64,000 nt of DNA, from the NCBI GenBank assembly GCA_028718185.1, contig JAQUMH010000002.1:4088-68087 (forward strand), written 5' to 3'. The notes beneath the pieces were generated by a model that searched no databases, was not told the origin of the DNA, and saw only the letters and a program-made list of their open reading frames with translations. Numbering within the stretch: position 1 is the stretch's first letter; each line of letters starts with the position of its first letter. Positions 3,589 through 61,313 of the stretch are shown piece by piece. Made by a program: the position numbers and the translations under genes. The DNA is from Elusimicrobiota bacterium. GTDB taxonomy: Bacteria > Elusimicrobiota > UBA8919.

Positions 3589-3678
3589 GTCATTGCGAGC
3601 CCGCCAACGGTTCAGTGGCGGGCGTGGCAATCTCTATTTAAAAACTACGAGATTGCTTCACCTTCGGTTCGCAATGAC
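3589..3678. repeat. Palindromic mosaic element, family A (GTCATTGCGAG...GCAATCTC / GAGATTGC...TCGCAATGAC) with a nested hairpin CCCGCCAACGGTTCAGTGGCGGG
   Basis: Read directly. Outer and inner arms are mutually complementary. The nested hairpin recurs inverted at 44165-44187. Confidence 0.8.
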
Positions 3679-3751: not shown

Positions 3752-5056
3752 TTACTTCAACCAGCTAAGCGGGTCCTGGGGTACACCATCTCGCCTTAAT
3801 TCAAAATATAGCGATGCATCCTGCGTATAAACTGAAATCCCTACGATACCTATGACTTCACCTTTTTGTATTTCCTGTTCTTCTTTAACCATTATTTTAT
3901 CAAGATTACCGTATATGGAATAAAACCCTCCTAAATGGTCAATAATTACCATTTTCCCATATGACTTAAACTCACCGGCAAAAACTACTTTTCCTTTATC
4001 TATTGCAATTATATTCTGACCAAGTATTGATTTTATTCTTATCCCGTTGTTAATTACCCAAGTATCCAGTTCCGGATGTTTTTGTTTGCCAAAAATTGAT
4101 GAAACATTTTTTCTTAAATCAGATGTTTCACCTTCTATAGGCCAGGATATTAAACCTTTCTTTTTCGACATTTTAATCCTGGATAACCGTTCTTCTTCTT
4201 TTTGTTTTTCTGTTTCTTTAGCTTTTTTTTCTAAAAGATCTATTAATTCAGAAAGCATCGTTTCAGAGTCTCTTAAGCTGCCAATTTCCTGTTCATAAAA
4301 AATGCGTTTCTTAACAACAGTTGAAAGAAGCTGTTTTTTATCATTTTTTTGTCTTGAATATGTTTGTTCTGAAATACCTTTCTTTAATTCAAGATTTTTC
4401 AGTTCTTCCATCCCGCTTTCAAGTTTAATTTTAAGTGATTCATATTTGTTTACATTTTTTGCTGTTTGAAGATAAACGAACGATTTTTGTCTTGCTAAAA
4501 GCTGCAAGAATTTATAACGTTTTACCAAATCAGCCGATGAATTCGAAGAAAGCAATATCCTTGCCGAATATTCATCAGTAACCGGTCTTCCTACTCCCTG
4601 GATATATGCAAACCTTATCTCGTTTCTTAGCGTATCTTTCCACTTAATCATTTCTTTCTTTGTTATTTCTAACTTAATTTTTAAACCGTCTATAGATTTT
4701 TGCTGTTGAGCAATCAATATTTTTGTTTTTTGTAATTCAATTTTTGTTGATTCAAGGTTTCTTAGAATATTTTCAAGTTGTGATTCTATTGACGCTTCCT
4801 TTTTTTTTATAATTTTTACATTATCTTCTTTTTTAGAAATTTCTGTTTTAACCCCGGTCAGCTCTTTTTTACTCTTTTTTATTTTCTGTTTATATTCTTT
4901 TATCTGTTTATCATAATTATCAGCATAAGTATAACAAATACAAGAAAAAGCAATTATACTGAAATAAATAATCCCCGCTAAAACCTTCATGAATTGATTT
5001 TCAGTTTGCCGTTTTAAGCCTATTATTTTCTTTTTATTGTTTTTTTGAAAAAACAT
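3752..5056 (-). CDS. envC: EnvC-like murein hydrolase activator: coiled coil plus degenerate LytM (M23) domain
   Basis: 434 aa with a long K/E-rich coiled coil. The C-terminal LytM fold (YGKMVIIDHLGGFYSIYGNL ... LYFELR) lacks the catalytic H..D and has Tyr in place of the LHFE His, as in non-catalytic EnvC. It overlaps ftsX by 23 nt. Confidence 0.75.
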   Translation of the reverse strand: MFFQKNNKKKIIGLKRQTENQFMKVLAGIIYFSIIAFSCICYTYADNYDKQIKEYKQKIKKSKKELTGVKTEISKKEDNVKIIKKKEASIESQLENILRNLESTKIELQKTKILIAQQQKSIDGLKIKLEITKKEMIKWKDTLRNEIRFAYIQGVGRPVTDEYSARILLSSNSSADLVKRYKFLQLLARQKSFVYLQTAKNVNKYESLKIKLESGMEELKNLELKKGISEQTYSRQKNDKKQLLSTVVKKRIFYEQEIGSLRDSETMLSELIDLLEKKAKETEKQKEEERLSRIKMSKKKGLISWPIEGETSDLRKNVSSIFGKQKHPELDTWVINNGIRIKSILGQNIIAIDKGKVVFAGEFKSYGKMVIIDHLGGFYSIYGNLDKIMVKEEQEIQKGEVIGIVGISVYTQDASLYFELRRDGVPQDPLSWLK

Positions 5057-9410: not shown

Positions 9411-9450
9411 ATATATTTTTTTTATTCTAAAACAAAAAGGAAAATTGTTT

Positions 9451-9507
9451 TAGTTATAGAGTTATAGGGTTTTTAGAGTTTAAATCCTAAAAACACTTTC
9501 TATAACC
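9451..9507. repeat. Second copy of the TATAGAGT/TATAGGGT 8-nt unit family with a partial inverted arm (CTATAACC)
   Basis: The sequence tagTTATAGAGTTATAGGGTTTTTAGAGTT...CTATAACC was read directly. It uses the same unit vocabulary as 1010-1072. Confidence 0.6.
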
Positions 9508-9536: not shown

Positions 9537-10670
9537 TTATTTTACAAGACTCTCATAGAGTTTTTTTGTTTTTTGAGCAATATATTCCCAGGAAAAATAT
9601 TTTTCAACACGTGCTCGCCCGTTTTCGCTGAATTTATTTCTTAATTTTTCATCTTTTAAAAGTCTATTAACAGCATCCGCTATTTGTTTTGAATTTTTCG
9701 GCTCGACCAGAATACCTGTTTCCTCCGGCATAACAACTTCTAAAATCCCGCCTGTTGCAGCAGCGACTACAGGTGTTTTACATGCCATAGCTTCAAGATT
9801 AATTATTCCAAACGGCTCATAAATTGAAGGACAAACAAAAACTTTTGCTGAACTATATAACTGAATATATTCTTCTTCTTTAAGTAATTTATGAATCCAA
9901 ACAATATTCTTTTTCTTTTCAACTTTTTTCGTCATTTGTTCTTCATAATCCTTAGTATCAGCACCATAAGCACCGAAAACAATCTGGACGGGAATGTCGT
10001 CGGCAGCATCAATTAAATATTCCATTCCTTTCTGAGGCGTAGGCCTGCCTACAAAAAGTATATAATCATCTGCTATACCATATTCTTTTTTCAATGACGG
10101 GCTCAAAGGTGTATATTTCCACTTATTCAAGTCAACCCCGTTATGAATAACCTCAATCTTGTCAGGAGAAATAGTAAAATACTTAAGTATATCCTGTTTC
10201 ATTAAACCTGAAACACCAATAATTTTATCTGCTGATTCTATACATATTTTTTCAATCCAGGCACTCAATTGATATCCTCTGCCTAACTGGTCTTCTTTCC
10301 AAGGCCTAAGGGGCTCTAACGAATGACAGGTTGCAACGAACGGAATGTTATATAATATTTTGGCAAGAAGTCCGCCAAAATGCCCATACCATGTATGTGT
10401 ATGAACAACATCGGAATTAATATCCTCTAAAACGGAAATAAGATTTGTAGACATTGTTTCAAGAGTAGGTGAGAACTTTTTACCTTTTAATTTTTCCCAA
10501 CCCTTATAGCCGATTGCTTTCAGTGTTTTTTCATCAATTTTCTGGTCTCCAAAACACCTTACTTCAACTTCCATTATTTTTGAAAGTTCCTGTGCCAAAT
10601 ACCTTAAGTGAACTCCTGCCCCTCCATAAACATATGGAGGATACTCTTTTGCCATCATTGTTACTTTCAT
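9537..10670 (-). CDS. glgM: GT4 alpha-glucosyltransferase of the actinobacterial GlgA/GlgM type (candidate maltose-1-phosphate synthase)
   Basis: 377 aa. The N-terminus is EYPPYVYGGAGVHLRYLAQEL and the C-terminus is a GT4 motif (EPFGIINLEAMACKTPVVA). It is adjacent to glgE. The symbol is inferred from family plus context, not shown. Confidence 0.6.
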   Translation of the reverse strand: MKVTMMAKEYPPYVYGGAGVHLRYLAQELSKIMEVEVRCFGDQKIDEKTLKAIGYKGWEKLKGKKFSPTLETMSTNLISVLEDINSDVVHTHTWYGHFGGLLAKILYNIPFVATCHSLEPLRPWKEDQLGRGYQLSAWIEKICIESADKIIGVSGLMKQDILKYFTISPDKIEVIHNGVDLNKWKYTPLSPSLKKEYGIADDYILFVGRPTPQKGMEYLIDAADDIPVQIVFGAYGADTKDYEEQMTKKVEKKKNIVWIHKLLKEEEYIQLYSSAKVFVCPSIYEPFGIINLEAMACKTPVVAAATGGILEVVMPEETGILVEPKNSKQIADAVNRLLKDEKLRNKFSENGRARVEKYFSWEYIAQKTKKLYESLVK

Positions 10671-10832: not shown

Positions 10833-12737
10833 TTAATGTCCAGGTGCTGTTATATAAGCATGAATAATTGACTGGAACTCATATTTTCTTGCTTCTATAT
10901 TTATCGTGTTAGCATAATTTTCATCAAAAGTTTCACCGGTATAAACTCGCCATAAAATTTCGTTATTAAAAAATTCTGCTAATTCTCTTCTCGCATAGAC
11001 ATCATTGTGTTTTGTAACCTTTTCCCGTAACTCAAAGAATTTTTTTGAATGTTGTACTGCAAGTTCGTTTTGAGGTTCATTTTTTGTGGCGCGCCAAGGG
11101 CGCGCTACTACACGAAATATATAAACAGGTTCTTTGTGGGGTTCAAGACGAACATAATTTTCTCTGCCATGCCATACATACTTCTTACCGGTAATCAATT
11201 CTTCTACAATATAATCCGTATCTGATGAAATACCAAACTCTTCAACAGGTACGGTCACTCTTGCATTCTGAATTTCAAAAGGATTAACATTTACCGCAAT
11301 TAGAATTATATTGTCTCCATATTTTTTTCCATAGAAAAATATATTGTCATTAATGGAATTGTAAATTCTTAAATTATCGTATTGTTGCAATGCAGGATTA
11401 GAGTTCCGTATTTCGTTGATTTTAGCTATATAATCTTTTATGTTTCCCTGTTTATTCCAATCCCAAACCTTATACTGGTATTTTTCCGAGTCGGCATAAG
11501 TTTCGGTTCTGGGAAAAGCATTTCCATCGCAAAGTTCATAACCGCTATAAATACCATACACTGAAGAAAGCGTGGAAGCGAGCGCGACTCTCATTTTGAA
11601 AGCAGGCTGTCCTCCCGACTGAATTATCGGCGGGCATATATCAGGAGTGTTGGTAAAATAATTTGCCCGTAAAAAATCCTTTAAATAAAAATTTGTTAAT
11701 TTTAAGACATATTCTATCAATTCATTTTTCCCGTTCCGCCAGGTAAAATATGTGTATGATTGTGAAAAACCTACTTTTGCAAGTTCTTCAAGCTTCTCAT
11801 AATTTGTGAATGCTTCCGCTAAAAATACGGTATCAGGATATTCTTTTTTTATATCACGTATGACCCACCCCCAAAACTCTGTCGGCTTTGTATGAGGATT
11901 ATCAACACGAAAATGGGTGACACCCTGTTTCCTCCAAAACACAAAAATTGATTTCATCTCCTGCCACATCATATCTTTGTTCGGCGGATAAAAATTTAAC
12001 GGATATATATCTTCATATTTTTTTGGCGGGTTTTCAGCATAGGCGATTGTTCCATCAGGTCTTTTGTGAAACCACTCAGGATGTTCTTTAACATATGGGT
12101 GGTCGGGAGAACACTGTAACGCAATATCAAGTGCGATTTCAATCCCAACTTTATTGGCTTCCTTTACGAAATGTTTAAAATCCTCAACTGTTCCAAGTTC
12201 CGGCTCCACAGACTTGTGACCACCCTGCTCGTTACCAATAGCCCACGGGCAACCGGGATCATTTGGTCCGGCATTTAACGAATTATTAGGTCCTTTGCGA
12301 TGAGACCTGCCTATAGGGTGAATAGGCGGTAAATATATAACGTCAAATCCCATTTTTTTGATATCAGTTAACCGATTTTCGCAGTCAGTGAATGTCGCAC
12401 TTTTCCCGGGTTGAATACCTTGTGAACGTGGAAACATTTCATACCAAGCTGCAAAACGTGCGTATTTTTTTTCAACCATAACTTCTAATATTTTACTGTA
12501 ACCGGCAATTGTATATTGATAAAAACCCGGTGTTATCGGAGTAAATGATGCAGTATATTTTACACCCTCTTTAAGCATTAAAATCTCTTTCCATTTTTTT
12601 TCTGATATTCTTTTGTATCTTAAAACAGGATGCTCATCGCCTTCAATTTCACAAGAAACAATAAACCCCCTGTCAACCTCAGTTTTAACAGGATACAACC
12701 CACCTTCTATTTCCGGATACACATTTTTAATAATCAT
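10833..12737 (-). CDS. glgE: Alpha-1,4-glucan:maltose-1-phosphate maltosyltransferase GlgE with an unusual ~95-aa C-terminal tail
   Basis: 634 aa. The N-terminus NVYPEIEGGLYPVK has the DUF3416-type start. The GH13 core includes FDVIYLPPIHPIG, HFRVDNPHTKP and FLAEAF. Confidence 0.85.
   Translation of the reverse strand: MIIKNVYPEIEGGLYPVKTEVDRGFIVSCEIEGDEHPVLRYKRISEKKWKEILMLKEGVKYTASFTPITPGFYQYTIAGYSKILEVMVEKKYARFAAWYEMFPRSQGIQPGKSATFTDCENRLTDIKKMGFDVIYLPPIHPIGRSHRKGPNNSLNAGPNDPGCPWAIGNEQGGHKSVEPELGTVEDFKHFVKEANKVGIEIALDIALQCSPDHPYVKEHPEWFHKRPDGTIAYAENPPKKYEDIYPLNFYPPNKDMMWQEMKSIFVFWRKQGVTHFRVDNPHTKPTEFWGWVIRDIKKEYPDTVFLAEAFTNYEKLEELAKVGFSQSYTYFTWRNGKNELIEYVLKLTNFYLKDFLRANYFTNTPDICPPIIQSGGQPAFKMRVALASTLSSVYGIYSGYELCDGNAFPRTETYADSEKYQYKVWDWNKQGNIKDYIAKINEIRNSNPALQQYDNLRIYNSINDNIFFYGKKYGDNIILIAVNVNPFEIQNARVTVPVEEFGISSDTDYIVEELITGKKYVWHGRENYVRLEPHKEPVYIFRVVARPWRATKNEPQNELAVQHSKKFFELREKVTKHNDVYARRELAEFFNNEILWRVYTGETFDENYANTINIEARKYEFQSIIHAYITAPGH
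11087..11112. repeat. Palindromic module (GTGGCGCGCCAAGGGCGCGCTACTACA) inside the glgE reading frame
   Basis: It has the same architecture (GC stem, CCAAGG loop, then ACTACA) as the intergenic copies at 19385-19407 and 44011-44035. It is translated as VVARPWRAT. Confidence 0.75.
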
Positions 12738-12796
12738 AAATATAAACCTCTTAACATTGCATTAATATCGCAAGTAAGCAAGAAATTTTCGCACAA

Positions 12797-12920
12797 CCTA
12801 ATCACAGAGCGAGGGAGTTGTTGAGCAGAACTTCACGGAGTTCCGCTTAAAACATTCAGCGGAACGAGTGAGAGTGCCAGCACAAGCTGGACACGGTTCT
12901 GCGAAACAAGCTCCCGAGCG
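12797..12920. repeat. Conserved ~125-nt structured element, copy R1 (three-helix design)
   Basis: The 63-nt stretch 12816-12878 is identical to 42799-42861. A long-range helix pairs GCAGAAC (12824-12830) with GTTCTGC (12896-12902). There is an internal hairpin GTTCCGCT/AGCGGAAC and a second hairpin CCAGC/GCTGG. Confidence 0.75.
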
Positions 12921-12953
12921 CAAATCAAGAAAATTTGCTTGCGAACGTTTTTT

Positions 12954-13952
12954 TTAAGTTTCTCTCAAAAATTTTGCTGCTTCTTCCGGCGGTGTCGGAT
13001 TTATATAAAAACCTGTTCCCCATTCAAATCCGGCAACTTTTGTTAATCGCGGCATCATCTCTAAATGCCAGTGATAGTATAGCGATTTTCCGCTACGGCA
13101 AGGTGAATTATGTATGACAAAATTATAAGGCGGGTCTTCTAACGTTCTGTTCATTCGCCCATTAATATCCCTTAAAATCATAGCAAGATTTACAACTTCG
13201 TGTTTTTGCAAATCCTCAAATACTGATGAATGAACTTTTGGAAGTATCCATGTTTCAAAAGGAAATCTTGACGCAAAAGGTGTAATACAAATAAAATCTG
13301 CGTTTTCAGATACAATTCTTACATTTGCTTCTGTCTCTTCCCTTATAATATCACAAAAAACACATCTTTCTTTATATTCATAATAGTTTCTGCTACCCAC
13401 CAATTCCTGCTTAACTCTTACCGGAACAGTCGGCATAGCAATAATCTGTGAATGTGGATGCACAAGCGAAGCACCGGCAGCAGCCCCGTGATTTTTAAAA
13501 ACTAAAATATACTCAAAACGTATGTCTTTTTTCAAATCAAGTGTCCTGTCACGCCATGCCCATATAATTTCTTCAACATCCTTATTTTCTATATCTGAAA
13601 ATGCGGCATTATGTTTAGGTGTTTCTATAACAACTTCATGAGCACCTATCCCATCCATAAAATCAAACATACCCTCACCGCGCCTGCCAAGATTTCCTTC
13701 TACCCTTAAAACAGGATATTTATTAGGAACAACCCTGACCCACCAGCCCTTTTCGTCTTTTCTGGTCCCGGGTTCTCTAAAAGATAAAATTTCGGGAGGT
13801 GTTTTACTCTCATTCCCCAAACAAAAAGGACACCCGCCGTTACTAGTCAAAGAATCTTCGTGAATTTTTTCAACATCCGGCTGAACTTTTCCCCGTTCAG
13901 TTGTAATAATTACCCACCTGCCAATAACCGGGTCTCTTCTTAATTCAGGCAT
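12954..13952 (-). CDS. GalT-family hexose-1-phosphate nucleotidyltransferase (galactose-1-phosphate uridylyltransferase-like)
   Basis: 332 aa. It has the N-terminal RRDPVIGRWVII, the zinc knuckle CPFCLGNE and the active-site motif HPHSQI. Confidence 0.75.
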   Translation of the reverse strand: MPELRRDPVIGRWVIITTERGKVQPDVEKIHEDSLTSNGGCPFCLGNESKTPPEILSFREPGTRKDEKGWWVRVVPNKYPVLRVEGNLGRRGEGMFDFMDGIGAHEVVIETPKHNAAFSDIENKDVEEIIWAWRDRTLDLKKDIRFEYILVFKNHGAAAGASLVHPHSQIIAMPTVPVRVKQELVGSRNYYEYKERCVFCDIIREETEANVRIVSENADFICITPFASRFPFETWILPKVHSSVFEDLQKHEVVNLAMILRDINGRMNRTLEDPPYNFVIHNSPCRSGKSLYYHWHLEMMPRLTKVAGFEWGTGFYINPTPPEEAAKFLRET

Positions 13953-13994
13953 CTTTTTCTCCTATTGTAATTGTTAAAAATCAAACAATTCTAA

Positions 13995-14046
13995 TCTGTG
14001 TAATCTCACTTTTAACCTGCCTACCGTCAGGCAGGTCTGTGTAATC
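13995..14046. repeat. 30-nt hairpin module (contains CCTGCCTACCGTCAGGCAGG) flanked by an 11-bp direct repeat TCTGTGTAATC
   Basis: TCTGTGTAATC occurs at 13995-14005 and again at 14036-14046. The hairpin is at 14017-14036. All read directly. Confidence 0.7.
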
Positions 14047-14063
14047 ATAGTTTTTGTGTCTCT

Positions 14064-14996
14064 TCAACAAAAACTAAGTTTTCCAGGGGTTGAATATTTA
14101 CAAAACCCGCAGTTTTCCAAATACTTCATTGAATTTTTCAGCTCGCCTTTTGTTGCTGTTGAATATACTTCAGCAACAAGAATTGTTTCTTTTTGTATAA
14201 ATTCTGATATTTCATTAAAATTAACTTCTCCGGTTCCCGGCGCTTTGTGGTCACGAACACCTGAAACATCATGCAAATGCATACCAATAAGCCGGCTAGA
14301 AAACATTCTTAGAAAATCAATGTGGTTTTTTACAATACCCTGCTTCTCGGCAACAACTGAATGTCCGACATCATACCACAAACCGAGATAATTCGTGTCA
14401 AACTTGCCGAGAATAACCGCATATTCCTCAAACGAAGGTATCTCATCCGCTATTAAACGATTTTCAATTCCTATTTTAACATTTTTTTTTACAGCATAAT
14501 TTAAAATTTCGTCAAGCGACTTCAAAACATTATCCAGGAATAATTTTGATTTTATCTTTCTTTCACGCAAAAACATTTTCAACGTTTTACTATATTCACC
14601 GCTGCCTTTTGTATCTTTATATTTTTTTGCTAAAAGCCCCCCGGATAACTCCATTTCAACTTCACCTGAATGAACAACAACTGCATTTGCACCAGTATTA
14701 CAGGCAATATCTATCGTCTTTTTTGTAAGTTCTACTGCTTTATCCCTTTCTTCTTTGTTAATTGCAGAAATATGATATGCATTGCAAAGAACCCTATCTT
14801 TTGGAACAAAATCAAGCTTGGGACAAAAGTTATGCACTGAAACGACTTTTAGATTTCCAGTTATATAATTAATAAAATCTTCAGGAACTTCTACACTTAA
14901 TTCTACAGAACAAAACCCAAGCGACTTTATTTTATTAACGAGTAGTACCGGATCTTTATATTTTGAAATGTTATATACCGTTGAAAGAGCTATCAT
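14064..14996 (-). CDS. Sugar phosphate isomerase/epimerase family (xylose isomerase-like TIM barrel)
   Basis: 310 aa. The motifs VVVHSGE, IGIEN and GMHLHD fit the metal-binding pattern of the AP-endonuclease-2/XI-like TIM barrel fold. Confidence 0.6.
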   Translation of the reverse strand: MIALSTVYNISKYKDPVLLVNKIKSLGFCSVELSVEVPEDFINYITGNLKVVSVHNFCPKLDFVPKDRVLCNAYHISAINKEERDKAVELTKKTIDIACNTGANAVVVHSGEVEMELSGGLLAKKYKDTKGSGEYSKTLKMFLRERKIKSKLFLDNVLKSLDEILNYAVKKNVKIGIENRLIADEIPSFEEYAVILGKFDTNYLGLWYDVGHSVVAEKQGIVKNHIDFLRMFSSRLIGMHLHDVSGVRDHKAPGTGEVNFNEISEFIQKETILVAEVYSTATKGELKNSMKYLENCGFCKYSTPGKLSFC

Positions 14997-19288: not shown

Positions 19289-19515
19289 AGGCAAAGCTTC
19301 GCTTTGCAGCTACAAACCAATTGATATTGTAGCCGCAGAGCGTTAGCTCTGCTAAATCATTGAAATCCTTATACTCGAGTTAACGCCGACCAAGGTCGGC
19401 AACTACATCATCATTGTAGTGGCAGAGCTTGCTCTGCCTGCATCTTTAATATTCTTACAAATATTTTAAATTTTGTCCCGCTCCAGTTCCGCGCCTGCCT
19501 GCCTGCCGGCAGGTT
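19289..19515. repeat. Intergenic mosaic of at least 5 GC-rich hairpin modules arranged as hairpin-CTACA...TGTAG-hairpin units
   Basis: Modules read directly: GCAAAGCttcGCTTTGC; GCTACAA...TTGTAGC; GCAGAGCgttaGCTCTGC; GCCGACCAAGGTCGGCaACTACA...TTGTAGTGGCAGAGCttGCTCTGCC; and CCTGCCTGCCGGCAGG. Confidence 0.8.
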
Positions 19516-20397: not shown

Positions 20398-23300
20398 TCA
20401 TTTTATCAGTCCTACCTTCCCGGTCTTCTTCCTGCCTGTAGCGTCTCTTATCTGATAAATATATACTCCTCTGGCTACTTTGTCTCCATCGTCATTCTTG
20501 CCATCCCACTCAAGCCAGCCAAGATTACCAAAGTCTGCCTCTTTGAGTTCCCTTGCCAATTCACCGGATACAGTGTATATCTTCATTTCACTGTTTATAG
20601 GCAGGTTTATTACCTTTAACTTACCACCTACCGCCATGTTAGGTTTATATGGGTTAGGATATACTTTCACATTACTCAGGTCTGTCGCAAGATAACTGCC
20701 CAATATACGATATGTTGTGAATCGTTTCACATTCGCTGTTATTGTCTTGTTTAGCTTGTCTACTATATGTACTCCAGGCACCAATTCCCACTCCCTACCG
20801 TTCCATGAATATATCCTTAATCCTTCTTCCTTTAATTCACCTATATCCACTAACGTGTATGGGATTGTTATGCTTATCGGCTTTGTAAATATATCTTCTT
20901 CCAATACCGATGTCTTATTTGTAAATGACAATCTTCCAAAATCATAACTTATGGGTTTCACGGTATCTACATATCTCGCTGCGTTTCTTACTACCGCCGG
21001 CGTCTTTGTCTTTATCACTGCCAAATTCCTGGTTTCTGTCAATACGTTTTCGCTCACTATTATCTTTAGTTTGTTTACTCCTTTTATCATTCCGCCATTG
21101 TTTCCTATTGGTTTTGCAAGATACATATCGTTGATATTTGTCAGGGTAGGCAACATGCTGTCTCCGGTAACTGATACTGTCTCTATTTCACTATTGAATG
21201 GTATTGATATCTCCCTTTCTCCTGTATCTTCTTTTGTCAGTATTGCGTCTGCAACGTTCAATATACCGGTTTTTGAGTTCTTTGTTGATAGTGTTAGTGT
21301 CCCGCTGTAATCCGTTGTGGGGTTATTGTCATTTGTATTGTATACTTGTGCTTTGAATTTCAAGCTTGATACTGTTATAGCTGGGTCTAATGACGCTGTA
21401 TCTAATGTCGGTCCGTCTTCGTAGTAATATGACTTTAAGGTGTTACTGTACTTTATAATAGGTTTTGGTGGTGTAGCGAGTCCTGTTACTGTCTCAAGAC
21501 GAACATCATCTATGTAATATGTATCGCCTGCAGTCGCATATGGCGTAAACCAGAACCGGAAACGTCCATCGGTTACCGGAGCTGTAAAGCCTGTGGTGAT
21601 AAATTCGGTAGTAAATGTCTGCCAGCTTGTGCCAAGGTTCGCTGTGTAATTCAAACCGTAGTCTGTGTATGGGGTCCCATGCTTTAACAAGTGTACTGTT
21701 ACGGCATGTCTGGTTGGCGAATAGGCTGTAAATATCAATCTATATCTGGTATTAGGGTTAAGGCAAATTCCTGTCTGGTATAATTGGATGTTACCATTGG
21801 CAGCGGTTATTGTACATTTGGCGGATTTGGCTCCTTCAAAACCTGGTGTTGTGCTAATAAATGTGCCTCCGCCACCTGCATAATATGCCCAGGAATCTGT
21901 ACCTGATTCAAAGCCGGCATTTATAACATGATTTGTGCCGGAAGAAGTGCTTAGTGTGCTGAACGTATAATTTTCGCTTGTTGCTATATTGCCGGAACCA
22001 TCTTTACTTGTTACATGGTAATAATATGTAGTACCTAACGTTAAGCCGGTTATGTTAACGCTATGGCTTGTTACTTTTGTTGTATCTGATGTCGTTGAAA
22101 TACCATATAGTGTTGTTGTACTGTACTCTACCTGTGAATCGCTTGGTTCATTGGTGAGCCAATTTATTACTGCGGAATTCCAGGTTATATTGCTGGATGT
22201 AACGCTCGTTATTATGGGCGGGGTTGTATCAGGTGGGACTGTTTCAAGGTGTATATCGTCTACGTAATACACATCACCTGCTGCTGCATATGGGGCATAC
22301 CACAACATTAAACGGGCATCAGTAACAACAGACGAAAATCCGGTTGTTACAAATTCGGTGGAATATGTCTGCCAGCTTGTGGTCAGGTTCGCCAAATAAT
22401 TATCCAAACCATAATTGGTATATGGGGTGCCGTGTTTGAACACGCGCACTGTCATATCATGTCCTGTATTGGAATAGGCTGTAAATGTTAATTTATATCT
22501 GGTATTCGGATTAAGGCAAATTCCTGTCTGGTATAACTGGATGTTACCGGTGGATTTGGTTATTGTACATCTGGCGGACTTGCTACCTTCAAAACCGGGT
22601 GATGTGGTAACAAACGAGCCTGCTTCTTCGGTATAAAAAGCCCAGGATGTTGTGCCTGATTCAAAACTATGATTACTTATGAAATTTATGTCGCTTGTAA
22701 ACGTATTGTCTTCGCTTGTTGAAAAATTACCTGATTCATCTCTGCTGCTTACCCTGTAATGATATACTGTACCAGGCATTAATCCTGTTATATTAGCACT
22801 GTGATTTGTTAACTTAACTGTACTTAACACTGTTGAGTTTCCATATGATGTTGTTAGTCCGTACTCCACCTGCGAATCGCTTGGTTCATTGGTTATCCAA
22901 TTTACTAATGCGGAATTCCAGGTTATATCGCAGGATGTAACGCTCACTATTATTGGCGGGGTTGTATCAGGTGGAACTGTCTCAAGATGTACATCGTCTA
23001 CGTAATACACATCTCCTGCTACTGCATATGGCGCATACCAGAACATTAAACGGGCATCAGTAACTACAGACGAAAATCCGGTTGTTACAAATTCGGTGGA
23101 AAATGTTTGCCAGGTTGTGGTCAGGTTCGCCAAATAATTACTTAATCCGTAGTTGGTATATGGGGTGCCGTGCTTGAACACGTGCAATGTCATATCACGG
23201 CCTGTATTGGAATATGCTGTAAATGTTAATCTATATCTGGTATTCGGATTAAGAACGATATCTTTTTGGTATAACTGGAGGTTACCGGTGGATTTGATTA

Positions 23301-26300
23301 TTGTACATCTGGCAGACTTGCTACCATCAAAACCAGGTGATGTGGTAACAAACGAGCCTGCTTCTTCCGTATAAAATGTCCAGGATGATGTGCCTAATTC
23401 AAAACTATGATTACTTATGAAATTTATGTCGCTTGTAAACGAATTATCTTCACTTGTTGCAAGATTACCTGCTGTATCTTTACTCTTTACCCTATAATGA
23501 TATACCGTACCTGATGTTAATCCGGTTATATTAACGCTATGATTTGTTACCTTAACTGTATCTAACACTGATGAGTTACCATATGATGTCGTTAGTCCGT
23601 ACTCCACCTGTGAATCACTTGGTTCATTGGTTAACCAATTTATTACTGCGGAATTCCAAGTTATATCGCTGGATGCAACATTCGTCATTATCGGCGGGGT
23701 TGTATCACTCATCACTTCAAACTCTGTTGTTGCAGATGAAGCATTACCTGCTAAATCAATAATATTTACTTTGCAAGTGTATGTACCGGAAGAAACATTT
23801 TGCCCAATTGTATTTTTGCCATCCCACTCACAACTATAATTTCCAGCAGGTACAGCCAAATTACTTATAAGGGCTCTTGTTAGTACATCATTATTGTAAA
23901 TTTCAACATTTATTACCGATTCTTTAGATAGAACAAATGAAATTTCTGATTTAATCCTTGCACCATCTGGTGATATTACTGCAGCAGATACCGATAAATT
24001 AGTTATCTGTGGTAAAGTGGTATCTCTTGTTATTGATGTTATTTTTGATTTAGGGCTATCAAACGGAATATTATTAAACCACCTCGTCGTTTTTGCAAAT
24101 ATTGGATTTGCTCCTTCTGAAAGCGAAATTTCTGCTGAAAATCTGCCATTACTATCTGCTTTTACTGTCTTCAAACTAGCACCGTCATTATATACTGTTA
24201 CATCTGCAACAGCTTCTACTACGCCTGTAATTGTTATATATTGCTGGTTTGTTATTGTTGATATATTTGCGTCAAATTCAGGTATTGGCACTTGTGGGAT
24301 TATTAAATACTGCGAAAATCCTACTACTTCACAACTTACTTCAAAAATATCGTTCTTCCCTGATGCATCTTTTTTCCACCCTAAACTTGTTAGTGTTGTT
24401 GGTTTTACTTTGCCATTACTGTCGACATGATATGCAGTGAGTTTTCCTATATCTACATTTGTAACTTCTTCAGGTAAAAATCGCACTGTTAAAACAGCAG
24501 GAGCAACTAATTTACCATTTCCATCTTTATTAAATTGTATATCTTTTGGTTCCATATCAAATAACGCACCAAGAGGCAGAGGCATACCTGTATCAACAAT
24601 AATATCTGTATCTGACAATTTTACTGGTGTTATGCTTACAGTGGTTGGTTGTAATAATGAATCAGTGTAAAATTCTAAATATGCTTTGTTCCATGGTGCT
24701 GATACATATTTATGTTCGCCAGGAAATACTTGTTTACCAACATATACTGTTTGCTCTATTTCTTTTACACCATTACCGGCAAATACATATAACTTTATTT
24801 TGTACTCTCCATTAAGTCCTGATACATCCCAAAATGATAGTGTATTATTTGAAACAGGTTGAGTGGATATTACCGGTATGGTTTTCAATATTGTATCGCC
24901 TGTCTTTTGATAGAACATTGAATATCCCTTAAAATCACTCCCAAACGCACTACCTTTTATCTCAACAAATCTTTTTGGTGCCGCTTCATCTGTTGATATT
25001 TTTACGGTAAAGTCGTCATTAATATCATTACTATCTGTGTTTGATGCTTTGGTAAGTTTCTTATCCACTACCAAATCATTACACATAGTGCCGTCTGGAT
25101 ATTGCAATTTTATGTCCCATTGTTTTTGAGTATCATAATTATCTGCATCAATCCACACATAAGGATTGTCTATAGTAGTTCCATTTTGTTTCCAAAAAGT
25201 ATATTTGTTTTTAATTTCATCGGGGTTATTCATATTTACCAAAGGATATGCTGCAGAAATCGTTATTGGTCTATATCGGTCAGCAACTGTTGGTTCAAAA
25301 GGTCCTTCTATTACAAAATCTGCTTGAAGATTATTACCACTATTATTAAATTCATTATTTTTACTAATGATCTTATGTTCTGGCAATCCTTGGTCATCTG
25401 TTGTCATATCCCATGATTCTTTCTCGTTGGTTGTCGCTTTTAATTCTAAAAGACCTCTTTCTTCTACTATTGTTTTAAGGACTTTAGGATTTGTTTGAGT
25501 CACAAATGTATAAGGAGATGATGACGGAATATAGTCATACGGTATTCTTATTTCTTCAATTGAATTGTAAGTATCGTGCCCATTATAACAAGTATTATTT
25601 ACAGTTACTGAAGGTTCGTAATTTGCATTTATTTTTACTTCACGTAAAACAGGAGTTTTACTTCCATCATTTGTAGATAAAGTTGCTTTCCATCTGATGT
25701 ATTTTCTTGGTGTTGAGTAAATTGGCTGACCAGGGGTTGCTGTTCTTTCAGATTCCCAACTATATCCATCATCACTCGTTTGAGTCGTATAAGTGATATT
25801 CGTTCCTGAAGGTTTGTATTCAGATACCTCAAAATTTCTCCAAGACGATGGTGCTGTTTTACAATCGTGTGCTTGAGAAATAAGTGTTCCAACTAAACCA
25901 AAATTCTGAGTGACATTGTATATTACTGGAGTTGTTTGTAAATCACGAGTAGCAAAATCTGCCCTCCATTTAAAATACCGTTTCTGACCAAGTGATGGCA
26001 CTACTCCATTTTCCACTATTGGGGCGGCTTCCCAGTTAATATTTTCTCCAGAACTATTGTAGCTTGCAATCCTATATGTTATGTGAGCCCCTCCTAAATA
26101 ACCTACATTATTTTCATCACTCGTTTGAAATAAGTTCCAAATTGGTGAATAAGAATATGTATCATGTTCTTGTGAAATAAACACACCTGTATTTTCATAT
26201 CGTTTTTGGTATCCCTCTATACTATTAAGAAATAAATATGCACCATGATTTGAATTGTGGGGCTGCACAAGGATCTTAAAATATGGTGCATAAAATGGTG

Positions 26301-29300
26301 TGGGAACTTCTTCATCAAATGAAATATTTATACTAGAACCATGAGAAACTACCTGACTCCAATACTTGTAAGTTGTCCATGGGCCATTTGAACTATTGCC
26401 GTATTGCAAGTAGATATTAGCACCACAATTATTTCCATCTTTATGCCATACAGCAACACTTCCTACTACCCGTAATCTATAAAATTTATAATGCCATGGA
26501 TATATAGGTGGTACACCTTGAGGAGGTCCTGAACGACCACAAACAAACGCCCAAGTGTTTCCATACCCAGCCCATGCAGGCCAGACAAGAGTACTATCAT
26601 TTCTATCATTTGCATTTGTCCAAGATGAACTAGGAGCAAGCGGATAATTACCCGAAATATCATCGTATTGTTCATGTATTGCATCCACAACATATTGACT
26701 AAACTGAACTTTATTATCAGCAATTATAAGAGTAGGTGTTTTTTGCCCATTATAAAAAGTAGAAATATCATCATATTTTTTGGTACATATCTTAACATTA
26801 CCCGACTCTGAATTTAGGTCAATATTACTTATGCCTCCTTGTCCAAAATCTTGTTGTGATGTTTGTATCCACGACTGTGCAGCATGTGTTTGCACAGTAG
26901 CAGAAAATGATTGCGGTGAATAATATTCCCCCTTTTTTACAGTTGCGGACCAGTTGAAATTAGAAGACCCTTGATTAACTGAATATGGTGCTGGTGAAGT
27001 AATTTCTGCTAACCCACTTCCTGGTCCTCCAATAACTGCAATTGAAACTGACGCGGAACCTTTTGTCTGGTCATCTACTGCAATAACATCTATCTTGCAA
27101 GTATATAACCCTTCTACAATACTACTCCAGACTGTTGTATACTCTGTCAACCCAGATGTAAATTCATTATCAACCATCTTTACAAGATTACCTACTGTAT
27201 CATAAATAGTAATATATACTGTAGCTGCTTTTGTCAGTTCATATGTAATTTGGACTGGTTCATTTAACAAGACATCTGATTTGTCTGATTCAAATTTTGT
27301 AATCTTTAGTGGTTCTGTTATGGTTACATTTACATTTACACTAACAGATTTCTTATCCATCCCGAGACCGTCTATATCTACTGCTGTTAATTGTATCCTG
27401 TAAATCCCATTTTGCACATACTGTTTTCTAAAATCCTTACCATCCCACTGTATTGTTTCACCAGCAGTTTTATTAAAATATTCTGAATGTAAAATTACCG
27501 GACCAAATGTGTTGACATCAACCATCTTAAAAATATCCAGTACCACATTTGACTTTTTGCCGGTATTCTGCATTAAAGTATATGAGATATTCAATTTATC
27601 ATTTATTGTGGTTATATTAAACACCTGGTCAGAAATAGGTGCTGTGATATTAAGTATCGGCTTGTCAGTTTCTGGAATTGTATTGTCCACTTTTACCGAT
27701 ACTGTTATTGCACTGTAGTTTGATGGCATAGCACTATCCTGTGCAACCAATAAAATTGTATAGGTACCATTTGGTAAAGATGATACATCCCAATACGCTA
27801 ATGTTGAATTTAGTATTGCTCTGTATGATGCATTAGAATTTGGATAATTTACATCATTTGGACTTTGATTTGACACAGGTACTGGTATCGATTTCCATAC
27901 ATTCATATCTGGACTTATGTAATTGTCTGGTGTCGCATTACTATAAGTAGCATACCATACTTTGTAACACAAAAAGTCAATATTATCATTTACTACTGGA
28001 TCTATTGCTATACCAACTATTTCTACTTGATTACCAACTATGCCATTAAATACTGGTGACACTATTTGGGCAGGTATCTGATTTTTTATTACATTTACCG
28101 TCTCTTCTGCTTTATTTCCTACTTCATCTGTTGTCTTTATTTTTATAACATAACTTCCATCACTTGCAAAACTGTTATCTTGTTTCTTTCCATCCCATGT
28201 ATAGGAATATAACACATCTTTTTGTTTTACCTCGGATATTGGACTTCGGACTATCTGTCCTAATATATCTTCAACAGCTACCTCTACTGTTGCATTATCA
28301 CTTATCTTATAATATGCTGTTACAGTATCATTTTTAAGTTCTGGATTAAATATTTGTATATTTGTGTAAAGTGTGGTTACAAATGACGGTGTTCTATCTA
28401 TCTTAAATGTTTGCAATATTGGAATCGTATTGCCTATATTTCCAGATTCATCTGTTGCTTTTAATCCTAATGTATACTCTCCATCAGACGCAGTATTCCC
28501 CAACGCATCTGTCCCATCCCAAGCATATAGAAGATTTTGTGTTATATTCGGTGTAACTACAAAATCTGTTACTTTTGTAAACAATCTTGTTCCTGATGTA
28601 AAAGTAAAACTCACCTTTGCTGATGGTGAAAATCTATCAAATATATCAAATGATATATCTACACTTTTATCATTTTTAGTAAAAATATTATGGGAATAAG
28701 CACCAGGATTTATATATATACTGCCATTTGATACCTGTGGTGGTGTTATGTCTACAATTATATCGCCTTCATATACCTTTAAGTTCTCTGCCTCATCAAC
28801 TGCTGTTATTTTACATTTGTAAATCCCTTCTGCTACTACTACCCCATTGGTATTTTTACCATCCCATATATCTAAATTTGCCCCTATATTCTTTGAAATA
28901 CTATCAATAAGTGTTCTTACTAAATTATTCTGTAAGTCATATATTTTTATTGTTGTTTTAATCACTGTTGAGAAATTATCCGATAAAGTATAATCTATCG
29001 TTGTTGCCTCTTTTATTCCATCACCATTAGGTGAGAATGCAAGACAGGAATAACTCGTTATATCTGGTGGAGTTATATCGTATCTCAACGTAACTGTTGC
29101 ATTTTTAGTGTAGTCAGTATTTCCAGCATTATCTTTAAGCCAGATATATAATATATTATTCCCTTCAACAACAGAGAAATTGGAAGTAAATGTTTGAGTA
29201 TTAGGAATATAATTTGCAGGTTCCGTATTTAACTTATAATATGCTCCTGCTATTCCTGATAAATCAGAAGGAGTTGACCATGATATGGTAAATTGTGTCT

Positions 29301-32300
29301 GGTTTGTCCAACCGGATGGTGAAACAGATAAAGATTGTGGTTTATCTGGCGGGGTCGTATCTACTATTATTCCATCACTGCTAACCGGGGTCTCGGAACC
29401 AGCTCCATTTTTCGCTTTCACTGTAAAATAATAAATACCGTCATCTAAAGGTGAATCAAATGTCCTAGTTATATTACTAAGTGTTCCTGTTGATGTTAAA
29501 GCGATAATATTATACCATCCAGTATTCGGATATTGTGATGTTCCTATTGCATATTGATATTCCACAATTCCAGAGATATCCTCGGTAAAACTCCAATTAC
29601 AAGAAAGTTGTGTGTTATTGTTTGTATATAACCCATCATTAATTGATACACACATTGGCGAAGTTGTATCAATCATTACACTGCCTCCTGTTAGCCATGC
29701 ACTCCATCTACCTGCCCCATTTTGAGCACGAACTTTTGCAAAATATGATTGACCATGAATAAGACCATCTACAGTATAATTTGTTTGACTATTTGGAACA
29801 TCTGCTTGTGCTATTAGGCTATCTGTGATGCTATTATAAATTGCAATATTAAAATTAGATATACCACTTTCCATATCGGTAGCAAAATCGCCTTCCCATG
29901 TAAATGTTACTGTTGTAGAAGAGGAATAGGCACCTCCTGCAAATCTTGGTGCCTTTGCAGGACCACTAGGCATTTCTGGGTCTGTTGTATCAAGATAAAT
30001 TTCATCCTTTATTTCTACTATAGAAATATTTCCTGCTTTATCTTTATATCTCGCCCATACCGTTTTATTACCTGCTCCTGCTGTCAACCACCAAGGAGAA
30101 TAAATATGTGTATACTCAATCCAATCTCCAATAAAAATTATTCCATCATAAGAAAACTGCATCCAACCAACTTCACTATTATCTGAAACTGTGGAATACA
30201 AACTAACTTGCTGACTACCTGTAAAATTTTCTAACGGTGCAAATGTATCTCTAATAAGTAAACTTCCAATCGGTGGGGTAACATCAATCATAAACTCTTT
30301 ACCAATAGTTGGTGTAACATTTGTAGCAATATTCTCTCCAATATCTTTTCCACTTATGGTAACGGAAACCATTCCTTCAACACCAGGACCAGAAACAATA
30401 TTTACTTCACCTTTATACACATTCCCTGATACAAGTATGGTTGCTACTTCTGTTTTATCATTCACAGTACCAGGAGCATCTATACTGAATGTTGGGTTGG
30501 CAGATAATTGTTCACTTGCAGTTATTTTTAGATAAATTGTTTGTGCTTTAGTTATTGGCTTTCCTGTATAAGTTGCTAATGGTTGTGTAAGATTTGAATC
30601 TGCAAAATATTCTACTGTGAAATTTGGTGGTATCATTGCTATTAAAGAGTAATCTAAATTATTAGCAAAAGCGTCTGTATTGCTTGGTATAACAATAACT
30701 TTGGAACAAGTTGTATCAAAATTGGAAATGGATACGGTATTACCAGTTTTATTTAAATCATTTTGTTCTTCTATAGTGCCATCCATTTTAACTTTCAACA
30801 CTTTGCCACCCCATAATGGTGTAACTACTGATGAATCAAAATTAAGGAGAAGCGTTTGTGGAGTTGGTTTATCAGGTGCTGGACGAAATTCAAAATAGTG
30901 ACTTGCAAGATGCATAACAGTATTAACTCCTGATGGGTATTGGTATTTAGCAGAAGTATCTAAAACTGTTATCTTCGGATAAGAATTACCTTCAATATAA
31001 TATTTAGAAGCATCATAATTCCAAACAGTAAATGTCTTAAATTCATTAGATAAACTTGTTCCATGACCTGATATTAATTCGCTATCAATTGCCGACAAAG
31101 AATCGGTAGTTTTACATATATCCCAAATCTGGCGAATTATATCTTTCTCATTAAATCTCTCGGAAAAATATTTTGCAAAAATACAGGAACCGTATTCATT
31201 CCAATCATTTATATAATCCAATGATTGAGTAGAATTTGCAAACCAAGATGGCTTTCCAGCAAATCCTTTAAGATATTGTAAATAGTCATTTACATTAGGA
31301 TAAATTTCATCTTCCATCCAGACAGATGTAGCTTCATTCCACCAATAATTATCATCTCTTGGATTATAACTACATTTAACAGCATGAAAAAACTCATGGG
31401 CGGAGGTAATCTGCATAGCATCTGTACCATGTGTATAAAATTTATCACCAATATAATCATTGTCTACCTGAATTATAGAACCTAAAATTGGATGTTTATA
31501 TGCAGTGCTTCCATATGCGCCATTTCCTAAATTTAAAATATAAACAGGTAATTTATTTTCAATTACAAAATATTCTGATGGTGGAGATTCATAACCATAT
31601 GAACCAGGTTTCACTATTTGGTTCCAACTATATTCAAAATACTGTCCAAAATTATATACATAATCGGGAATACCATTGTGTGATTGCCAACCTGCTGAAT
31701 TGACCTGATTAACATCAGGATTTGAAATTGTATATGCTCTAAAATGAAACTTAAAATTAGTGGTTTTATAAACGCCGTAAGTGTAATATACATCTTTTAT
31801 ATTGCTAACATTACCAGCAACATCCCACACTTGTATCATTATATGATTTATTCCTTGGCGAAGATTAATATTATCAAACGATTTAGTATCATTTGTGCCA
31901 TTTACGTATTGTTCTTTTGCTGGTCCTATTTCTGGTATTACCACTATTTTTTCCAATTGAATCGTATCTGACACAGTAACATTTATTGTTATTGTTTCAT
32001 TTTCTCCTTGATTTTGGTCAGGAGGATTAAATGAGACCACGGTAGGTTTAGTTTCATCAAGTATAATGGAAGTGGAAACAAAGGATGATATATTACCTGC
32101 ATAATCTTTAACTCTAAAATATATTGTTTTTGCACCTTCGCCAGTAGAATTAATATAATAAGATTTTGATATAGAATAATCTTCCCAAGTTGATGGCCAA
32201 TTATTAGAATCCTCAGTAAATTGCATTTTCGCCACACCGGAAGTTGCATCACTTGCTAATAACGCTAATGTAATAATTCTATTATTAGTAAATCCCGTAC

Positions 32301-38510: not shown

Positions 38511-38549
38511 ATTCTTTACATCCAGTTTAATAATATCTGTTTTAAAATA

Positions 38550-38577
38550 ATTATAAATATTTTAAGAACTTTGTCAA
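38550..38577 (-). promoter_or_regulatory. Near-consensus sigma70-type promoter for the four-gene operon (TTGACA-16 nt-TATAAT)
   Basis: On the minus strand, TTGACA is at 38577-38572, a 16-nt spacer follows, and TATAAT is at 38555-38550. This is about 40 nt upstream of the ATG at 38510. The call rests on the sequence match only, with no expression data. Confidence 0.5.
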
Positions 38578-38746
38578 GTATTTTCCTTATTTAGCAAATT
38601 TTTATGTGCAATTATTAACACTATTTGCCAACTACTAGTTGATTATATTATTTTATGGTTACATTCTTAAATAATTTGTCAAGAGGTTATTTGTATATAT
38701 TGTTGTGCAATTATCGATATAATTAATTAATAAATATTTATTTATT

Positions 38747-52292: not shown

Positions 52293-52303
52293 ATATTAAG
52301 AAA

Positions 52304-52396
52304 CACGAATTATCACGAATGTTATGACACATCACGAATTTATCACGAATATTCGTATCCTATTCGTGATTTTTTGGTTATTCGTGTTCATTCGTG
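52304..52396. repeat. ~93-nt imperfect palindrome built from 4 direct CACGAAT units and 4 inverted ATTCGTG units, symmetric about 52350/52351
   Basis: CACGAAT is at 52304, 52314, 52333 and 52344. ATTCGT(G) is at 52351, 52362, 52380 and 52390. The central ACGAATATTCGT is a perfect 12-nt palindrome. The last unit supplies the final codons (IHE-stop) of the 726-aa ORF. Confidence 0.8.
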
Positions 52397-60857: not shown

Positions 60858-60950
60858 GAGATTGCTTCGCTAACGCCTACCTACCGTCATGCAGGCTCAC
60901 AATGACAAATCTGCCTGTCATTGCGAACTGACTCATCGTGAAGCAATCTC
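60858..60950. repeat. Family A palindromic element (with nested CCTACCTACCGTCATGCAGG hairpin) abutting and overlapping the GIY-YIG stop codon
   Basis: GAGATTGCTTCGC...CACAATGAC is at 60858-60905 and GTCATTGCGAAC...GAAGCAATCTC at 60917-60950. Both were read directly. Confidence 0.8.
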
Positions 60951-61251
60951 ATAAGTTATTATACAAATCAGTCCACCTTGAATTCATAATTTCAACTAAC
61001 TTAATTTTCTTATTTCTTGAACCCGCTTTTATTTGTTTTTCTCTGCTTATTGCATCTACTGGATTTTCAAAAACTTCATAATAAACAAGTTTATTAATGT
61101 TGTATTTTTCAGTGAAACCTTTTACAATTTTATTTTTATGTTCATAAACTCGCTTTTTTAAGTTGCTTGTTATTCCCGTATAAAGAACTGTATTGTTCTT
61201 GTTTGTTAAAATATAAATTGAATAATACTTTTTCATTTGAGATTGCCCCAT
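60949..61251 (-). CDS. GIY-YIG nuclease superfamily protein (small UPF0213/COG2827 type)
   Basis: 100 aa. Motifs YSIYILTNKNNTVLYTGITSNLKKRVYEH, NKLVYYE and REKQIK. Confidence 0.8.
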   Translation of the reverse strand: MGQSQMKKYYSIYILTNKNNTVLYTGITSNLKKRVYEHKNKIVKGFTEKYNINKLVYYEVFENPVDAISREKQIKAGSRNKKIKLVEIMNSRWTDLYNNL

Positions 61252-61285: not shown

Positions 61286-61313
61286 GAGATTGCTTCGCTA
61301 CGCTCGCAATGAC
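61286..61313. repeat. Family A half-element GAGATTGCTTCGCTACGCTCGCAATGAC upstream of the GIY-YIG gene
   Basis: Read directly. It lies about 35 nt upstream of the GIY-YIG start codon. Confidence 0.8.

Follow-up and report, generated by a model that had tools for sequence, protein, structure and literature searches.

The window analyzed here, that is, the whole 64,000-nt stretch of DNA, belongs to an AT-rich Elusimicrobiota MAG, and the feature under study occupies a 111-nt spacer that separates two minus-strand genes: an AP_endonuc_2/sugar-phosphate isomerase-like TIM-barrel gene upstream and a galactose-1-phosphate uridylyltransferase-like (GalT-like) gene downstream (Table 1). Scanning the window with up to one mismatch, we found two plus-strand copies of the 11-mer TCTGTGTAATC and no third copy, which confirms the 11-bp direct repeat around 30 nt that an earlier note on this DNA had described. 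The 30 nt consist of TCACTTTTAA (14006-14015) followed by the palindrome CCTGCCTACCGTCAGGCAGG, which is predicted to fold as single-stranded DNA into a 7-bp stem with a 6-nt loop (-6.1 kcal/mol). RNA folding of the spacer predicts three hairpins (z = -4.95), with the palindrome, lengthened by its flanks, forming a 10-bp stem. Rfam searches returned nothing at gathering thresholds for the whole window and nothing at E values up to 1 for 12700-14100.

Table 1. Coordinates of the features discussed in the text (positions in the 64,000-nt window)
Feature	Position	Strand	Remark
GalT-like (galactose-1-phosphate uridylyltransferase-like) gene, downstream	12954-13952	-
Ribosome-binding site AGGAGAAAAAG of the GalT-like gene	13953-13963	-	Kept in relatives
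Promoter-like TTAAAA-16-TAGAAT, adjoining the palindrome on its downstream side (coding strand)	13988-14015	-	Consensus match only
Tandem unit 1, TTCTAATCTGTGTAATCTCAC, 21 nt	13989-14009	+
Direct-repeat copy, left, TCTGTGTAATC	13995-14005	+	Within tandem unit 1
Tandem unit 2, probably split by insertion: TTTTAA (14010-14015), 20-mer, TCTGTGTAATCATAG (14036-14050)	14010-14050	+
Putative inserted unit: GC-rich palindromic 20-bp module CCTGCCTACCGTCAGGCAGG	14016-14035	+	Recurrence elsewhere and filled/empty pairs
Direct-repeat copy, right, 11 nt	14036-14046	+	Distal portion of the probably interrupted tandem unit 2
AT-rich hairpin TAGTTTTTGT/ACAAAAACTA across the stop codon of the upstream gene	14048-14076	-
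AP_endonuc_2/sugar-phosphate isomerase-like TIM-barrel gene, upstream	14064-14996	-
Related palindrome CCTGCCTGCCTGCCGGCAGG, 8 nt past the stop codon of an M50 peptidase gene	19494-19513	+
Second family copy CCTGCCTACCGGCAGGTAGG, 2 mismatches, no flanking direct repeat	42701-42720	+
Third family copy CCTACCTACCGTCATGCAGG, decayed, 2 mismatches, inside a GTCATTGTGAG...GCGAAGCAATC hairpin frame	60876-60895	+
100-aa single-domain GIY-YIG gene	60949-61251	-	Pfam E = 3e-16; weak match to structure 1ZG2

The palindrome belongs to a widespread family. A scan of metagenome contigs with the query CCTGCCTACCGNCAGGNAGG matched at least 120 stretches, and the family consensus, CCTGCCTACCGGCAGGCAGG, was present at 123 of 138 sites among the matches listed, in more than 120 metagenome contigs; the exact variant found in the window occurs in at least six other contigs. 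The carrier contigs listed have GC contents of 0.31 to 0.68, come from at least two phyla and share no common flanks and almost no genes. One of them (L102; GC content of 0.68) is Chloroflexota-like by its DnaJ protein, with its closest named relatives ~70% identical. The same 20 letters were found in Elusimicrobiota-like, Chloroflexota-like and virus-classified contigs, the last accounting for 12 stretches. Copy density reaches five in 9 kb in contig L052, compared with three or four in the 64-kb window. Each of the window's four copies lies between genes. Of the variant palindromes that the earlier note had listed elsewhere, those at 42701-42720 and 19494-19513 stand, while the one placed at 60879-60898 was off by 3 nt and really lies at 60876-60895. 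A literature search found no description of the 20-mer element. An assembly or sequencing artifact, such as a hairpin adaptor, was considered and rejected because the copies are intergenic, decay by point mutation and recur in independent assemblies (the window and L001; L015 and L059).

To establish what the family inserts, we compared filled and empty versions of the same sequences. In pairs located on the same contig (L021, L037, L043, L052, and L121), the 20-mer is the exact difference and no flank is duplicated. The cleanest pair, in L037, has flanks of ~140 nt that are ~97% identical, and the 20-mer is the sole indel. Cross-contig pairs (L110 versus L080/L118 and L044/L065 versus L029) likewise differ by exactly the 20-mer, and their flanks are not duplicated. 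The window contains a pair of its own, in which a filled site at 60860-60906, with the 20-mer between GTCATTGTGAG and CGTTAGCGAAGCAATC, differs from the empty GTCATTGCGAGCGTAGCGAAGCAATC at 61288-61313 by exactly the 20-mer. Among the 120 sites listed, 50 had no direct repeat abutting the 20-mer, 56 had one of 1 nt, 9 had one of 2 nt and 5 had one of at least 3 nt. Judged from these alignments, members of the family are a discrete 20-nt insertion unit with clean ends and without target duplication. The proposal that such mini-palindromes are, or were, mobile is well supported by the filled/empty pairs; the 11-bp repeat, which had been offered as direct evidence for it, is no evidence for mobility. 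Cytosine was the base at position -1 in 57% and at position +1 in 70% of the 120 sites listed, and other flank positions were unconserved. The copy at 14016-14035 has A at -1 and T at +1, unlike the usual C of the family.

The surroundings of the copies are also distinctive. Inverted repeats of at least 8 nt flank 23% of the sites listed versus 2.5% of controls, making them nine times commoner, and direct repeats of at least 8 nt flank 12.7% of the sites listed versus 3.3% of controls. These direct repeats do not abut the 20-mer and derive from short-period arrays, which is the situation at 13995-14046 as well. Self-nesting of the form cctgcctgc[20-mer]cggcaggcagg was seen in several unrelated contigs, and in L043 (~4700-4870) and L121 (~10400-10590) the 20-mer sits within the D-loop of an incomplete second copy of a tRNA 5' half. 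Going by these flanks, the 20-mer prefers the loops or centers of other hairpins, its own copies included. Its orientation relative to neighboring genes (28 versus 16 among the copies listed) showed no significant bias. The tRNA remnants in L043 and L121 are situated directly upstream of an intact tRNA gene, a layout that resembles an att-site remnant.

Several other repeats share the window with the palindromes. A repeat of ~125 nt is found in the spacers at 12797-12921 and 42780-42908, 95% identical over 82 nt, with an internal segment exchanged between the copies, one having AGCACAAGCTGG and the other the palindrome CCCGACGTAACGTCGGGG; there was no Rfam match for the 12797 copy, and none for the 42780 copy, which was scanned at the gathering threshold only. 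Arrays with an 8-nt period (GGGATTGT/GAAAGCGG) at 54213-54283, 56152-56246, and 58432-58462 lie at matching places close to the 5' end of each of three paralogous open reading frames arranged in tandem, apparently inside the reading frames; two of these three were scanned, and both match the TMEM260-like O-mannosyltransferase family. Short-period word arrays were noted at 1006-1072, 9433-9486, 45823-45865, 52293-52387, 56014-56040, and 62029-62133, composed of the words AGTTTTAG/TAACCCTA, CGCTGATT, TCACGAAT (in both orientations), GAGTAAC, GTCCGAA, and GACATTG, some of them in spacers and others within open reading frames or overlapping them; comparable arrays are found around the 20-mer in metagenome contigs that are unrelated (L026, L046, L051, L066, L094, and L095). 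The 25-nt palindrome GCCCGCCAACGGTTCAGTGGCGGGC occurs at 3599-3623 and 44164-44188 in opposite orientation and with 100% complementarity, and one copy is nested inside a GTCATT...AATC frame. A 734-nt spacer at 38511-39244 carries two direct repeats of ~100 nt (CCCGATTTTTATTTATRGAATTTGTTATCGG...), with a GC-rich hairpin after each of them. Finally, a 4,192-aa open reading frame at 20398-32976, which is missing from the syntenic region in relatives L003-L009, has internal repeats of 738 to 753 nt (21488-23737).

At the spacer under study, when positions 14016-14035 and no others are deleted, the exact match lengthens from 11 to 14 bases and the right copy becomes ...TTTTAATCTGTGTAATCATAG. Without the 20-mer, the adjacent 21-nt units TTCTAATCTGTGTAATCTCAC and TTTTAATCTGTGTAATCATAG agree at 17 of 21 positions, 14 of them consecutive. 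Tandem Repeats Finder reported no repeat in the intact spacer; in the spacer from which the 20-mer had been deleted, it reported a period of 21 with 2.4 copies, 79% matches and a score of 65. Because the deletion restores a tandem repeat, the palindrome appears to have landed within a preexisting local duplication. We infer the insertion at 14016-14035 from the behavior of the family because this locus has no orthologous empty site. We consider it probable that the module interrupts the second unit of an older 21-bp tandem repeat (~13985-14054, 2.4 copies), in which case the spacer before insertion would read ...CTCACTTTTAATCTGTGTAATCATAG..., 20 nt shorter. On the evidence of the sequence, the 11-bp flanking repeat is made up of the parts of that tandem repeat on either side of the insertion and is no insertion footprint.

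A short repeat of this kind might also arise by chance. Dinucleotide shuffles predict 2.4 exact direct repeats of at least 11 nt within 60 nt per 64-kb window, and the coding DNA of this window does hold three comparable and ordinary ones, both of which would be compatible with a fortuitous 11-nt match. Against this, the repeat is intergenic, and just 0.07 to 0.09 such repeats are expected in the window's 3.5 kb of intergenic sequence. Once the 20-mer is removed, moreover, the match rises to a close repeat of 14 exact nucleotides and 17/21 overall, and a 14-nt exact close repeat was seen in 0.2% of intergenic shuffles. The 11-nt repeat taken alone is mildly unusual; it is the 14-nt result after removal of the 20-mer that makes it significant. 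Given its rarity in intergenic DNA and the 14-nt match, we regard the repeat as a real duplication rather than noise, and a chance match is a very improbable explanation for it.

The earlier note had interpreted the same repeat as an 11-bp target-site duplication, left by the transposition of a 30-nt element, made up of TCACTTTTAA and the palindrome, into a site with a single TCTGTGTAATC. The corresponding empty site would be ...TTCTAATCTGTGTAATCATAG..., 41 nt shorter and with one copy of the 11-mer. This interpretation would account for exact 11-nt repeats that immediately border the 30-nt segment, and intergenic DNA seldom contains such a repeat (0.07 to 0.09 expected). It sits poorly with the composition of the supposed element, since its left 10 nt, TCACTTTTAA, were found at this site alone among the copies compared. 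Only the 20-mer recurs: TCACTTTTAA lies beside none of the 135 other listed copies that have full flanks, for which the best left match to TCACTTTTAA was 6/10 and the best right match to TCTGTGTAATC was 6/11, and the 30-nt hairpin module is therefore not a unit. CACAGA-type words showed no enrichment beside the 20-mer, which places the 11-mer outside any extended consensus. The geometry is also at odds with a duplicated target. The segment has no terminal inverted repeats, with TCACTTTTAA unpaired at the right end; the palindrome adjoins the right repeat only, the left one being 10 nt off; and the TAA that precedes the palindrome prolongs the repeat, something not expected of a target-site duplication. 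When the other copies were checked for flanking duplications, as had been suggested, none was present at the three others in the window, and across the palindrome family exactly 20 nt are inserted without duplication, with abutting repeats of 0 to 1 nt at 106 of the 120 sites listed. A search of the metagenome collection for a predicted 22-mer empty site gave no matches, which is weak evidence, with the nearest relatives ~61% identical in protein. Overall, the target-site duplication is unsupported and largely refuted, and we judge it very improbable.

Two further explanations concern function rather than insertion. Because the 21-nt units differ at four positions, paired functional sites are conceivable, and the tandem units could be such sites rather than a neutral duplication. 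In this model, the 14-nt words GATTACACAGATTA (coding strand) would be paired sites for a regulator of the GalT-like gene, with an original separation of 21 nt, or about two turns of the helix, and the palindrome would have been inserted between both words or would act with them. The words do overlap the promoter-like TTAAAA-16-TAGAAT just upstream of the GalT-like gene, their spacing of 21 nt, now 41 nt, keeps both on the same helix face, and in RNA the flanks lengthen the palindrome stem. The window contains no excess of the word, however (11 matches versus 11.7 expected, with up to three mismatches); relatives, with a gene gap of 9 to 16 nt, have nothing similar; and the partial third unit reported by Tandem Repeats Finder fits slippage or duplication better. 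Paired regulator sites are therefore unlikely, if still worth keeping in mind. Alternatively, the palindrome might have evolved at its present site, downstream of the TIM-barrel gene, as an intrinsic terminator with no relation to the repeat. Its GC-rich stem 28 nt past a stop codon in an AT-rich genome is what such a terminator would provide, but its tail, UUAAAAGU, has no U-tract, and a terminator scan made no call. At least six unrelated contigs moreover contain the identical 20-mer, more than 120 contain the consensus, and the 20-mer also lies upstream of genes and within other repeats. A terminator as the origin of the palindrome is refuted by this evidence, and we give it next to no credence; the palindrome may nevertheless contribute secondarily to termination or to the stability of the mRNA.

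The same locus was examined in relatives. Gene order around it is kept in three related Elusimicrobiota lineages. In two of them the orthologous spacer measures 9 nt (L009-L011) and 16 nt (L006-L008) and contains the ribosome-binding site only, free of hairpins. The third lineage (L003-L005, 10943-11046) has a 104-nt spacer with a different 20-nt palindrome, CATCCGCTAACCGGCGGATG, so that such palindromes have colonized this spacer independently. Exact-protein look-ups led to a single other assembly of the same organism, L001, which is filled and is identical across the aligned spacer and gene ends. No orthologous empty site was found for the locus among these relatives, the nearest of which have ~61% protein identity and unalignable spacers, and the protein collection contained none closer. 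A scan of the genome collection with the TIM-barrel protein gave a single match, unrelated and 28% identical.

We also looked for an enzyme that might mobilize the palindromes. No transposase family was found among the window open reading frames examined, 20 of them by Pfam and most others by synteny; this check covered all except the 4,192-aa open reading frame and one TMEM260-like paralog, and within that scope the earlier statement that the window carries no transposase holds. Clustering of 854 open reading frames from the 120 loci listed revealed no recurrent protein family near the copies, and tblastn with the GIY-YIG protein of the window found homologs at just 2 of 132 loci.

A mechanism that would fit these observations is one in which the 20-mer travels as a single-stranded hairpin, with a structure-specific enzyme acting in trans, either a RAYT/IS200-type HUH tyrosine enzyme or an Ssn-type nuclease system, cutting and rejoining it. 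Exposed single-stranded loops would be the preferred targets. After insertion, the transcript would gain a stable stem-loop between genes that are 9 to 16 nt apart in two related lineages, and the inserted palindrome might then act as an mRNA 3'-end barrier or an attenuator in the manner of REP elements. By analogy with those elements, a role of CCTGCCTACCGTCAGGCAGG in mRNA stability or attenuation is possible. A broader and more speculative reading, which we put forward as a tentative possibility that we think somewhat doubtful, is that CCTGCCTACCGGCAGGCAGG would be a self-contained 20-nt insertion unit that crosses phyla with identical sequence, occurs also in virus-classified contigs and targets the loops of preexisting hairpins without duplicating them. 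The loops so targeted would be those of its own copies, of repeats of the Ssn type and of remnants of tRNA D-arms. If this is true, there would be an unrecognized trans-acting, structure-specific insertion machinery, or a route of templated synthesis, that is common to phyla; such machinery would differ from the REPIN-RAYT systems, which are bound to lineages.

For the locus itself, the consequence is that a false footprint is removed: the 11-nt repeat is silent on how the palindrome moves. The filled/empty pairs, on the other hand, are direct sequence evidence that a hairpin of just 20 nt is a discrete insertion unit. For the question of how hairpin repeats of the REP-like and Ssn-associated kinds multiply, so small, conserved and widespread a unit would be a convenient substrate with which to find the enzyme. 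Enzymes that cut and join at defined single-stranded DNA hairpins are of practical interest too.

Among known systems, miniature inverted-repeat elements (MITEs) such as Correia/NEMIS, RUP, and ERIC resemble the 20-mer in being small, nonautonomous, intergenic and hairpin forming. MITEs, however, are 70 to 300 bp long and have IS-matching terminal inverted repeats and target-site duplications, whereas the 20-mer is just 20 bp long and has neither, so it was rejected as a member of this group. Elements that encode TnpA also insert without target duplication, depend on hairpins and prefer single-stranded targets. They differ in their size of ~0.7 to 2 kb, in having left and right ends that are distinct from each other and carry guide sequences, of which none are found here, and in inserting 3' of a fixed 4- to 5-nt target, of which there is likewise none here. 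The mobile GC clusters of yeast mitochondria are short GC-rich palindromes that have spread through AT-rich spacers and nest within one another, as the 20-mer does. These clusters are organellar and 30 to 50 bp long, some classes have short flanking repeats, and their sequence is unrelated to that of the 20-mer.

The hairpin repeats associated with Ssn offer a closer comparison. They are found in distant bacteria and have been tied to small GIY-YIG single-stranded DNA nucleases (PMC11893778, Nat Commun 2025). The 20-mer shares with the Ssn/NTS/dRS3 repeats the property of being a short hairpin repeat found across distant bacteria, and the base directly after it is C at 70% of the sites listed; for binding by SsnA, the cytosine directly after the palindrome matters (PMC11893778). 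In the window, GTCATTGCGAG...GCGAAGCAATCTC hairpin frames lie on both sides of the GIY-YIG gene, at 61288-61313, 60917-60948 (inverted), and 60860-60906. The frames flanking this open reading frame are of the GTCATTGCGAG...AATCTC type, and the GTCATT...AATC frames around the gene recall the NTS-ssnA-NTS layout, one of them carrying a nested 20-mer. Further frames of the GTCATT...AATC type were noted at 3589-3634, 3651-3678, and 39705-39736. In contrast to Ssn repeats, the 20-mer lacks an oriented GTCAT tag, and GIY-YIG homologs are not enriched near it (2 of 132 loci); Ssn, moreover, is known for cutting and not for inserting. The published SRM pattern, HGTCWYN(0-2)YYVSBRHN(0-5)WNVSBRGN(0-2)RNCYNB, had no matches on either strand of the window. 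Because this pattern is unmatched and GIY-YIG homologs are unenriched, we treat the link to Ssn as a lead and not as membership.

REP elements provide the other close parallel. Like REPs and BIMEs, which are extragenic imperfect palindromes of 20 to 40 bp, the 20-mer is extragenic, with 20 bp and a 7-bp stem. Both are nested in or adjoin other repeats as mosaics, with REPs reported within other palindromes (PMC3733652), both show no target-site duplication, and both probably act as hairpins in mRNA. The two large REP superfamilies carry a terminal GTAG/CGTC tag, which the 20-mer lacks, GTAG being internal and present on its complementary strand only, and the inserted unit is a single exact 20-nt hairpin rather than a REP doublet (REPIN). 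REPs also have a high copy number, more than ~100 in one genome; the 64 kb of the window show three or four copies of the 20-mer. A RAYT gene was not seen among the window open reading frames examined. REPIN-RAYT systems are described as inherited for the most part vertically within individual lineages (bioRxiv 10.1101/2022.05.22.493013), whereas the 20-mer is common to contigs with GC contents of 0.31 to 0.68 from at least two phyla. By analogy, then, the 20-mer would work most like a REP element, and REP and Ssn-associated hairpin repeats are the closest known kinds.
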